Origin: Octopus vulgaris
Taxonomy: Eukaryota
NCBI GenBank assembly: GCA_951406725.2
Contig: OX597826.1
Location: forward strand, 36,456,001 to 36,520,000
Length of the DNA stretch: 64,000 nucleotides
Direction: 5' to 3'
Numbering within the stretch: the first letter of the stretch is position 1; each line of letters starts with the position of its first letter. Position numbers and translations under genes: made by a program. Below are positions 17,012-58,681 of the stretch, piece after piece. Under the pieces are notes generated by a model. The model searched no databases and was not told the DNA's origin. It was given only the letters and a program-made list of their open reading frames with translations.

Positions 17012-17198
17012 TACATACATACCCCTATGCTAGCAAGGGTTAAATGAACATATATACACACTATGTATGCAAATGTGTAATGGTACATAAATGTATGTAT
17101 ATATATATATATGTGCATGTGTGTGTGTAAGGATATATATATATACATACATACACACACACACACACACATAAATATATATATATACACATACATAT

Positions 17199-17233
<35 letters not shown>

Positions 17234-17364
17234 CACATACATACCCCTATGCTAGCAAGGGTTAAATGAACATATATACACACTATGTATGCAAATGTGT
17301 AATGGTACATAAATGTATGTATATATATATATATGTGCATGTGTGTGTGTAAGGATATATATAT

Positions 17365-17395
<31 letters not shown>

Positions 17396-17422
17396 TAAAT
17401 ATATATATATACACATACATAT

Positions 17423-17455
<33 letters not shown>

Positions 17456-17470
17456 CACATACATATACAC
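17012..17470 (+). repeat. Tandem duplication, about 222-bp period
   Basis: CCCCTATGCTAGCAAGGGTTAAATGAAC..GGTACATAAATG at 17022 and 17244, identical apart from microsatellite length. Confidence 0.9.
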
Positions 17471-31108: not shown

Positions 31109-31290
31109 CTGCAACCCGTCTGTGTTATTGTTTACATATATAAATATATATATCAAGGGTTGAACAGAAAGAACACCACAAGCAGAAAAAGTTAGATGAA
31201 AGCAGAGCAAATGGGAATCTAGATGAAAATTTAATGGATGGGAAATTTAGACAAAGACACAATACTCAGAATATTCACAAATGAGTTTTC

Positions 31291-31350
31291 CTCATCAGTC
31301 AATGCTCCAAAATATCATAGTGGTTTCGTGCCATTGCCATTGAGACCACT
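31291..31350 (-). ncRNA. Hammerhead-like motif with non-canonical strand order
   Basis: AGTGG TC^TCAATG GCAATGGCAC GAAA CCACT (14 nt) CATTGA CTGATGA G. Stem III AGTGGT/ACCACT 6 bp, stem I TCAATG/CATTGA 6 bp, all core nucleotides present, stem II ambiguous. Confidence 0.65.
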
Positions 31351-32826
31351 CAATTTGGGAGGTGTGAATGCTGTTATTAAGCTACTGGGGAAAAACTAGT
31401 GAATGTATACTAAGACAGAAACAAACAAGACATTGTATAAATACAACAGACGAAGATTTATTCATATATAACAGCATGGAGCCTAATGGCTGTATACAAC
31501 AGAAGAAAAACCATAATAATTATATATATACCACACATACTACAAGAATAGCTTTTTAGCTATTGAATGAACTTAGTGGGGTTGCACAGGGTGAAATGGA
31601 GTAAGTCCTAATGGACGTAGTAGGAGCCCAGCCCAGCATGATCAGTCTGGTCAAAGGCAGGGTGAAAAAGAACAACACCGTCTTCACCGGACACTGGTCA
31701 TGTGGTAGGGAAGAAGTATTAAGAGAGGGAAAGGATGGGAGAGAGAGAAAGAGAGAGAGAGAGAGAGAACGAAAGAGCAGAGAGTTTGAAGAAACAGAGT
31801 GAGAGAGGGGAGAAAAATAGAGAGAGAGAGAACAGAAAGAAATGGCAACAGAGAGAAAGGAGAAATGTACAAGGGAGGCAAGCAAGGGCAGAAAGAGAGA
31901 GAGAGAGAGTAAAAGTGGAGAAGGAGATAGAGTAAAAGTAGAGAGAGTTGTGTGTGTGTGTGTAATTAATAATTTCTTACCTCATGGTATTTTTTACGCA
32001 AGCTATGCCACTTGATATTATTGTTTACAATATTGTAAACAATAATATCCTTATATGTATATACATACATGCATACCTACCTACCTACTTACATACACAA
32101 CTTTTTATCAAATTTCTTGGTACTTATATAAAATAATGAAAAGAATACTAATTTTTAAAAGAATAATTTTATTAGCTTAACATAAAATTGGATTAAAGAT
32201 ATTTCTCATTTATATATCTGCAGAAATATATTCTAGGAATAATATATTTCTAAAGCTCTCAGAGAGATTTATGCAGTAGCAGCACAATAAAGTGATGGTA
32301 TGTTGTCAACTTAATGTGACATAACCATTAGCAGGGTGGACAAAATACTTAGTGGTGTTTTTTCTGAGTTGTTACATCCTAAATTCAAATTCTGCTGGGG
32401 TCATCTTTGCCTTTCATTCCTACAAGCCATGTACAGGGGTCAATGTGATCGACTAACTCTCTGCTCCAAATTTCAGGCCTTGTACTTTTATGAGAAACAA
32501 ACAAAATAAAAATGTTTCTAAATTCTATCAGTAGAATCACAATTTACTCCATCAAAAGCCTATCATCATCAAAATTACATTGAAAAATATGCATTTTCAG
32601 AAAGTTATCATTGCCAGCCACCAAACCTTGTATGTGCACACATTCTGCTTTCCTTATGTTCATTTTCTCTGTATGTCTCCAGAAGGGATATAAAGCATGA
32701 TTGGAGAATTCATGAAGCCAACCAACCAACCAACCAACCAACCAACCAACCAACCAACTAACCAACCGACCGACTGACCAGCCAACATTTATATCAGCTA
32801 CTATTGTTTACAGGTGTGTGCATGTA

Positions 32827-57436: not shown

Positions 57437-58219
57437 GGGTAATACATGATAAAAGGTGGGAAGAAATGTAATTTGTCCACTTTCATTTACTCATTTCCAC
57501 TAATTTCTGATTGTGCGTATCTTCCAAAGTAATTCCAATCTGAAATACTTTAAAGGTTCTGAAGAGAATGGTTTGGTAGATGACTGTTCCATAAATCTGC
57601 TGATTAATTGATCAATTAATGCATCAATTAAACATGCAAAGCGCAGTGTCTAATAAATACAACTCACTGAATCATCTGAATCGCAGGTAAGCAAGCAAAG
57701 TATTGTATTCTTAAATCTTTATTTCATTAAGGATATCCTCTGTGATCAATATACCAAAATTACTAATTGGTAATGAACAATTTGCACCTGTCACATGGTA
57801 TAATTAACTTGTATGGATTGTTATTATCTTTATTGGACATCCTATTCTTCATCTTCTTCTACACCATTCATGGACGTCAACTTGAGAGCATGGTATATTT
57901 TTCATTGCAGTTCTCATGGCTATGGTCTTCGTCCAGCTGCATAGATTTCGCCTGTCCATTGCTGCAATGTTTTAACGAGGGACCACTTGTATGAATGGTC
58001 ATGGGAAACCAATGAGTTCATCTGTCCGTTGAGTGATCTCCTCACATAACAAACCAGATAGGGAATTACACAAAAGACACTGATAAAATATATACCAGGC
58101 TTACATTGAATAAGTCCAGGAGTTGATTTTTTTCAACTAAAGGCGGTGCTCCAGCATGGGTTCAGTCAAATGACTGAAACAAGTAAAAGGAAATATATAT
58201 ATATATATATATATATATA

Positions 58220-58624
58220 TCATCATCGTTTAACGTCCGTTTTCCGGGCTAGCACGGGTTGGACGGTTTGACCGGGATCTGGGAAGCCAGGAGGCTGCAC
58301 CAGGCTCCAGTCTGATCTGGCAGTGTTTCTACAGCTGGATGCCCTTCCTAACGCCAACCACTCCGTGAGTGTTGTGGGTGCCTTTTACGTATATATATAT
58401 TAATATATATATGTAAATATGTATATATATATCATCATCATCATCATTTAACATCCATTTTCCATGCTAGCATGGGTTCGACGGTTTGACCGGGGTCTGG
58501 TAAGCCATAGAGGCTGCACCAGGCTCTAGTCTGATTTGGCAGTGTTTCTACAGCTGGATGCCATTCCTAACGCCAACCACTCCGTGAGTGTAGTGGGTGT
58601 TTTGTACGTGCCACCGGCACAGGA

Positions 58625-58628
<4 letters not shown>
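58220..58628 (-). mobile_element. Two tandem 3' portions of the Meta-like SINE
   Basis: CATCATCGTTTAACGTCCG..GGATGCCCTTCCTAACGCCAACCACTCCG at 58220-58390, repeated at 58432-58628. Confidence 0.85.

Positions 58629-58681
<53 letters not shown>

Follow-up and report, generated by a model that had tools for sequence, protein, structure and literature searches.

The window, as the whole 64,000-nt stretch of Octopus vulgaris DNA analysed here is called, carries on its minus strand a hammerhead motif in which stem III, the triplet GUC, stem I, GAAA, stem III, stem I and CUGAUGA follow one another from 5' to 3'. With the blocks named S (cut site), G (GAAA) and C (CUGANGA), as in Eckert et al. (2023, PMC10085705), this is the order S-G-C. 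Stems I and III have 6/6 pairs each in hammerhead register, and the whole motif, at 31286-31393, lies within a repeat element bordered by a (TA)n tract. The features of the site are:

31153..31948, minus strand: single, 5'-truncated copy of family A, a putative non-autonomous Penelope-like (Naiad-type) element; ~800 nt, 5' boundary approximate
31136..31152, no strand: (TA)n tract that adjoins the element at its 3' junction and was probably the insertion target (Naiads favour (TA)n; PMC8557442)
31388..31393, minus strand: 5' strand of the enclosing helix P0; 5/6 pairs left
31366..31387, minus strand: hairpin Pa, adjoining position 10.1 with no unpaired base; 3/4 outer pairs left
31361..31365, minus strand: stem II, 5' strand; position 10.1 is 31365; 2/5 pairs left
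31353..31360, minus strand: interaction helix, 5' strand; links stems I and II at their outer ends; 7/8 pairs
31344..31350, minus strand: stem III, 5' strand (31350-31345), and GUC triplet, with H17 = C31344
between 31344 and 31343, minus strand: predicted cut, placed by analogy with hammerheads
31338..31343, minus strand: stem I, 5' strand; 6/6 pairs
31328..31332, minus strand: stem II, 3' strand; its last base is C11.1 (31328)
31319..31327, minus strand: G12-A13-A14-A15.1 (GAAA, 31327-31324) and stem III, 3' strand (31324-31319)
31314..31318, minus strand: AUGAU linker, seen in 8/8 families of the genome, partly by search design
31306..31313, minus strand: interaction helix, 3' strand
31299..31304, minus strand: stem I, 3' strand; 6/6 pairs
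31292..31298, minus strand: CUGAUGA core (C3-A9); family consensus CUGACGA
31286..31291, minus strand: P0, 3' strand, beginning at the base directly after A9

The S-G-C hammerhead motif at this site is real. A descriptor for the order (5-bp stems I and III, G-U allowed) matched once in the window, at the motif, and twice in 100 shuffled windows. CUGANGA, GAAA, the U16.1-A15.1 pair and an H at position 17 are present both in this copy and in its family, and helices I, II and III adjoin the core in register with covariation at the family level, stem II failing in the window copy. An initial annotation had read the site as a hammerhead with strand order A-C-B and with two perfect 6-bp helices against the core, and the location of the core blocks and stems, together with the descriptor match, bears this out, although its span of 31291..31350 was too narrow. 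It had also expected searches for types I-III to miss the motif, and Rfam at gathering scores indeed gave no match anywhere in the window. Five other CTGATGAG matches in the window have no hammerhead stems by eye, and none was matched by the S-G-C descriptor. Elsewhere in the window, 17013-17465 and 58193-58655 each hold a two-copy array, of period 222 and 219 nt respectively, resembling tandem short interspersed repeats.

The 221-nt motif region has 313 candidates in the 2.8-Gb genome, and among the 40 that were scored there are 42 matches of 77-87% identity, the self match excluded. In an alignment of 34 near-full-length copies the order is S-G-C in 34/34 and none of the orders CGS, GSC and SCG of types I-III, so the arrangement is not a one-off rearrangement. 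The proposal of a non-circularly permuted, pseudoknotted motif thus holds across the family, in which stems I and III covary.

The host is best read as a non-autonomous Penelope-like element of ~950 nt. Family A copies end at a common 3' point ~190 nt downstream of the predicted cut, are 5'-truncated at variable points, and are frequently arranged as partial head-to-tail tandems; an inverted 5' copy is frequent, and some copies carry a tail of 30-40 nt. All of these are traits of Penelope-like elements. Most of the 30 3' junctions viewed, by eye and without a count, run into TA, CA or related microsatellites. Where two motifs share a locus they stand 949 nt (L021) and 941 nt (L055) apart, and the L021 copy comprises 1.25 units and is intact across the predicted cut. 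The family A unit has no meaningful ORF, only low-complexity frames, and none with the N-terminal GIY-YIG and C-terminal RT of Naiads; nor was RT found upstream of family A in loci L001-L060 with 1.5-kb flanks. One sequencing run, guessed to be RNA, contains 27 contigs of family copies and is uninformative on expression or ends.

The window copy is ~80% identical to the family A unit and has decayed in places that matter. Its position 10.1 (31365) is A where the family has G, and the junction-closing pair of Pa is lost. In three DNA runs the family base makes up 83-87% of family-contig depth at 31365, indicating that the changes in the window copy are private decay. To judge from its broken helices, this copy is most likely inactive. 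Of 54 family A members, 22 have all five stem II pairs and 5 have two or fewer, and 12 combine a whole core with near-complete stems.

Related families were sought with patterns. A generic 3'-half pattern had 733 genomic matches against 4 for its reversed control and yielded six further families, and a 20-nt motif of family B had 683 matches in the genome against 0 for its control. From 645 fuzzy candidates, 208 in eight clusters were used, a few of which are offset duplicates of one site, giving eight consensuses, built from 54, 49, 24, 20, 18, 16, 15 and 12 members; the families are lettered A, B, D, E, F, G, H and I. Eleven other clusters, all pairs and all singletons were left out by eye (antisense same-family matches, unrelated repeats and lone divergent copies). 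Families B-I were found through patterns requiring parts of the core, so the conservation of their core is partly by design. Nor are the families independent, since their core spans are 97% identical between B and D, 74% between A and I, 71% between F and I, 70% between B and E and between D and E, 68% between I and E, and 45-63% in all other pairs. Lone divergent copies with the same layout and other stems (L177:4442(-), L179:4505(+), L187:4489(-) and L117/L118/L064) indicate that there are probably more families than the eight analysed. Another repeat family (L004, L005, L023, L054, L170, L216) has CUGAUGA, a stem II hairpin and GAAAC in succession, an ordinary arrangement that looks like the canonical type I hammerhead of Penelope elements.

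The comparison settles the position of stem II. In family A a perfect 5-bp partner for the stem II strand before GAAA lies upstream of the cut-site block, and only one base pairs after CUGANGA. G10.1 and H17 lie 21 nt apart in 8/8 consensuses, and at this offset stem II is Watson-Crick at 40/40 positions, as compared with 2-17/40 at 18 other offsets. The eight families use five different stem II sequences, with G10.1-C11.1 in all eight. Downstream, in the ~75 nt after CUGANGA, a 5-bp Watson-Crick partner occurs in 0/8 consensuses and G-U-containing ones in 3/8 at unrelated offsets, and contiguous pairs number 0-2 in 8/8. The base directly after A9 is G in three families (A, I, E), U in three, C in one and A in one; being free, and starting P0, it is not G10.1. 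A stem II split between 10.1 and 10.2 was likewise rejected because this base is other than G in 5/8 families. The initial annotation was mistaken here. It took G31291, in fact the first base of P0, for G10.1, and allowed, as uncertain, a stem II either of 1 obvious bp or formed by GGCAC with a downstream GTGTC, both of which were rejected in favour of the upstream strand, which gives the family a stem II of 5-6 bp. The upstream strand was overlooked because it is mutated in the window copy. For the same reason the transcript that it proposed (31370-31250) would carry a broken stem II, and would also miss the 5' strands of P0 and Pa. A splice joining CUGANGA to the upstream strand was considered and rejected, a GT donor being absent after the core.

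Each helix pairs better within its own family than with the strands of the others: 40/40 against 177/280 for stem II, 39/40 against 140/280 for stem I, 39/40 against 186/280 for stem III, 40/40 against 176/280 for the interaction helix, 30/32 against 99/224 for Pa and 22/24 against 82/168 for P0. For these six helices, 2-16 of 40320 strand permutations reach the observed own-family pairing. Among 16 real copies, a set biased towards pairing as 15 were picked as well preserved and the window copy was added, both sides have changed at 4/5 stem II pairs and 5/5 stem I pairs, and the covariation score is 0.69 against at most 0.12 in slid registers. The two family H rows of alignment A1 are out of register at stems I and III. 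The consensuses have a C-A mismatch at 15.2/16.2 in family I and a stem I mismatch in family E. H17 is C, A or U in 8/8 families and never G, and N7, the free position of the core, varies.

What fills the opening in block C is a junction of helices. Pa ends at the base directly before G10.1 in every family, and the bases directly after A9 pair, as P0, with the strand just 5' of Pa, so that P0, Pa, stem II and the core meet at the A9-G10.1 step. P0 has 12 bp in family G, 7 in D, 6 in A, 5 in H and I, and 3 in B and E; in F the parser gives 1 bp and RNAfold 7. No base separates P0 from Pa in six families, and the parser leaves 2 in D and 1 in F, where RNAfold has a longer Pa or P0. The four-way junction appears, from this arrangement, to stand in for the A9-G10.1 bond. 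An interaction helix of 5-8 bp is present in 8/8 families, and the short tether between stems I and II foreseen by the initial annotation was recovered as a linker of 1-5 nt between stems of 5-6 bp. The interaction helix, Pa and P0 were placed where they gave the most pairs, and in 300 shuffles of the upstream region the resulting score was reached 0 times for A, G, H and I, 9 times for D, 17 for F, 30 for E and 93 for B. CCAAAAT/ATTTTGG could be taken for a prolonged stem III, which would imply a dimer, but published Naiads show that it is the interaction helix.

Single-sequence folding, which is blind to pseudoknots and was given no weight here, gave z values of -2.07 and -0.25 for the window copy and of -1.49 and -1.30 for two other copies. 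In minimum-energy folds family A forms a 6-bp hairpin over the cut site (31338-31353, minus strand), a rival to stems III and I. This hairpin could delay cleavage during transcription in family A, and it is no rule in the other families.

Hammerheads of the S-G-C order have been described. Type SGC (HRIMA-1), detected solely in metatranscriptomes, comprises 583 predicted examples, five of which were shown to cleave, and has a short linker between stems I and II and a required interaction helix (PMC10085705). The view of the initial annotation that no natural hammerhead with such connectivity had been described was therefore wrong. Type CSG, known from two sequences, likewise cleaves and needs the interaction helix (PMC10085705). 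These RNAs came from metatranscriptomes and metagenomes, with a single weak GCS candidate from the genomes of known organisms, and the scheme admits only six orders because CUGANGA and its adjacent stem strands are assumed to be contiguous (PMC10085705). The family motif shares with type SGC the S-G-C order, the short linker between stems I and II, the interaction helix, the full core and the pseudoknot. In type SGC, however, block C is contiguous and one of the three links between blocks is open (PMC10085705), whereas in the family motif all three links are closed and short, and block C is split at A9/G10.1, where P0 and Pa form the four-way junction. A stem II strand directly after CUGANGA, as in an intact block C, is found in none of the eight families. 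The family motif is further distinguished by its occurrence as high-copy repeats in an animal genome. Judged by its sequence and helices at the family level, it would count as a hammerhead, outside types I-III and outside type SGC as defined. The novelty is the break between A9 and G10.1 and not the order of the three blocks.

The A9/G10.1 step is known to be tolerant, since the minimal type I hammerheads of Penelope pseudo-LTRs have a conserved one-base insertion at 9/10.1 (PMC4209133). Both they and the family motif lie near an element end and carry an insertion at this step, but it is one base in the former and a two-helix junction with chain exit in the latter, and the minimal hammerheads have the type I order, a tiny palindromic stem III and a dependence on dimers (PMC4209133). 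Non-LTR retrozymes are non-coding tandem units with one hammerhead each, proposed as non-autonomous Penelope derivatives (Cervera and de la Pena 2020; 10.64898/2026.07.22.740005) and defined and searched by type I (Li et al., 10.64898/2026.07.22.740005). Family A is unlike them: most copies are dispersed, truncated and single, tandems are partial, and the motif is permuted and not type I. A literature search, which covered few subscription papers, found no report of permuted hammerheads in Naiads or animal genomes or of an opening at A9/G10.1, and a variant opened there is absent from the passages searched in Forgia 2023 and in a 2019 review. Other hammerheads with additional helices are credited to Weinberg et al. 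(2015), and there the helices reportedly occupy another site of the core than A9/G10.1.

Naiads, a large group of Penelope-like retrotransposons in animals, were stated to be devoid of canonical hammerheads, although unexplained strings in them were flagged as 'HHR_core' (10) and 'HHR_half_core' (8) (Craig et al. 2021, PMC8557442). Family A resembles Naiads in its common 3' end, truncated 5' ends, partial tandems, inverted copies at the 5' side, tail of 30-40 nt and (TA)n target. Naiads measure 3.4-4.4 kb (PMC8557442), and family A ~950 nt without an ORF. The 3' ends of the octopus consensuses Naiad_Obim and Naiad_Ovul are family B of this genome; they have the layout of family A, but their stems differ and are fully paired, and U follows CUGAUGA. 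RT pieces lie upstream and on the same strand at four places in family B and one in family D, the RVT_1 match among them (E = 1.3e-5) being below Pfam's cut-off, and the one locus that was extended, L261, yielded no GIY-YIG domain. The RT piece upstream of a family D motif (L108:2454-2999, minus strand) is 31-43% identical to the family B RT, from which it is taken to belong to a second autonomous Naiad-like family, despite the 97% identity of the B and D cores.

File S5 of PMC8557442 contains 54 families, of which 23 3' ends, 450-600 nt each, were viewed by eye. Six have the split form (Naiad_Obim, Naiad_Ovul, Naiad-2_Movir, Naiad-3_Chem, Naiad_Plae and Naiad_Bfor), one has type CSG (Naiad_Smim), and the remainder have a partial motif or none in the stretch viewed. 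Naiad-2_Movir and Naiad-3_Chem, from cnidarians, and Naiad_Plae and Naiad_Bfor show the eight-strand layout with unrelated stem sequences, which backs it independently of the families in this genome. In Naiad_Plae, from an acanthocephalan, stem II has 6 bp, Pa 8 bp and P0 5 bp, there is no gap, and the spacing is again 21 nt; Naiad_Bfor, from a ctenophore, has the same layout with a stem I of only ~2 bp. By eye, complete type CSG motifs are present in four nematode Naiads and one spider Naiad (Naiad-2_Nbra, Naiad-3_Nbra, Naiad_Hcon, Naiad_Parc and Naiad_Smim), that of Naiad_Parc lying further upstream than the 3' stretch viewed. These five have a 5-bp stem II, stems I and III of 5-9 bp, an interaction helix of 7-15 bp and different stem sequences; they share their cyclic sense with the split form, and the spider Naiad_Smim has a single extra U between A9 and G10.1. 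In one further Naiad 3' region in the file, which resembles type SGC, block C is contiguous, stem II is weak at 3 bp, and the linker between stems I and II is long and structured. The bivalve Naiad_CGi, Naiad_Tgra and Naiad_Pmar have a common GC-rich 3' motif, with no CUGANGA in the stretch shown, that is possibly another ribozyme or signal.

These observations make it quite probable that the family encodes a monomeric hammerhead, a closed pseudoknotted ring of S-G-C sense opened between A9 and G10.1. The strands would run P0, Pa, the 5' strand of stem II (from G10.1), interaction strand, the 5' strand of stem III and NUH, then stem I, 1-5 nt, the 3' strand of stem II, GAAA, stem III and AUGAU, and finally interaction strand, stem I, CUGANGA and P0. 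The four-way junction, usually without an unpaired base, would hold A9 beside G10.1 with no covalent bond between them. Tandem transcripts would fold the ring and be cut after NUH into unit-length RNAs of ~950 nt, whose two ends P0, stem II, the interaction helix and stem III would keep together, ready for ligation or template jumping. The Naiad RT/GIY-YIG protein would then copy the unit RNA into (TA)n, and family A would borrow this protein. Genomic copies begin ~190 nt past the cut and read intact across it, indicating that their template was circular, multimeric or uncut; for a Poseidon element, internal initiation of reverse transcription has been shown (PMC11167929). The interaction helix reaches the outer end of stem III over linkers of 2-4 and 5-7 nt, which are hard to fit to a gamma-shaped fold, a short-linker puzzle that Eckert et al. 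also raise (PMC10085705). As a structure the motif appears well supported, and its catalysis is predicted.

Three other explanations have been weighed against such a monomeric ring. The same helices may require a strand-swapped dimer, or two units in tandem, for activity, with the CUGANGA strand docking on the S-G half of a different molecule. Most metazoan Penelope hammerheads do act as dimers (PMC4209133), very short linkers flank the interaction helix, and tandem two-motif copies exist (L021 and L055, above). Against this, stem III is a full 5-6 bp and the palindromic loop is absent, the entire domain is locally enclosed by P0, a path of constant length, 21 nt from G10.1 to H17, points to a single compact fold, and single motifs of the natural SGC and CSG forms cleaved in the course of transcription (PMC10085705), so that obligate dimers seem unlikely. 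An ordinary type SGC hammerhead would need the G after CUGANGA to be G10.1, with a stem II of 1 bp or formed downstream and the upstream pairing incidental or inhibitory. The G in families A, I and E and a G-U-rich downstream match 31 nt after A9 in family A are in its favour, but the base is U, C or A in the other 5/8, where contiguous downstream pairs are 0 (B, D, G, H, F), and the upstream strand pairs at 40/40 while a downstream Watson-Crick partner occurs in 0/8. On this comparison of families the ordinary reading is largely refuted and highly improbable.

Another conceivable reading is that the fold is real but non-catalytic, now or ever, a hammerhead-derived scaffold for Naiad protein recognition or priming. 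In canonical hammerheads a metal site lies in the A9/G10.1 region, where a break could abolish catalysis. Further, one Poseidon hammerhead needed its protein in order to cleave, and its cleavage was dispensable for insertion in vitro (PMC11167929). A mere scaffold nevertheless sits poorly with the conservation of C3-A9, G12-A14, A15.1-U16.1, G10.1-C11.1 and a non-G H17 while N7 is left free, the more so as these are also kept in family A, which a search by DNA similarity alone brought up, and in six published consensuses whose curation took no account of the motif, and it is accordingly held to be quite improbable.

If the motif is the catalytic ring that we favour, a new descriptor beyond the standard searches is at hand, with many natural covarying examples. 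Its break at A9/G10.1 contradicts the explicit assumption of six permutations in the published scheme, and helix entry at this step would give ribozyme engineering a new place of attachment and structural work a compact target. Non-circular permutations would move from anonymous metatranscriptome contigs to named animal genomes and to a defined mobile element. The apparent absence of hammerheads in Naiads had been taken as evidence for hammerheads as dispensable passengers. It now seems likely that Naiads kept hammerheads, many of them active and non-circularly permuted: a seventh topology, the closed ring with a four-way junction for the A9-G10.1 bond, in cephalopods, cnidarians, an acanthocephalan and a ctenophore, and CSG in nematodes and a spider. 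With hundreds to thousands of copies, they would be the first non-circular permutations of an RNA in the genomes of animals, and their permuted wiring may explain why Naiads seemed hammerhead-free.
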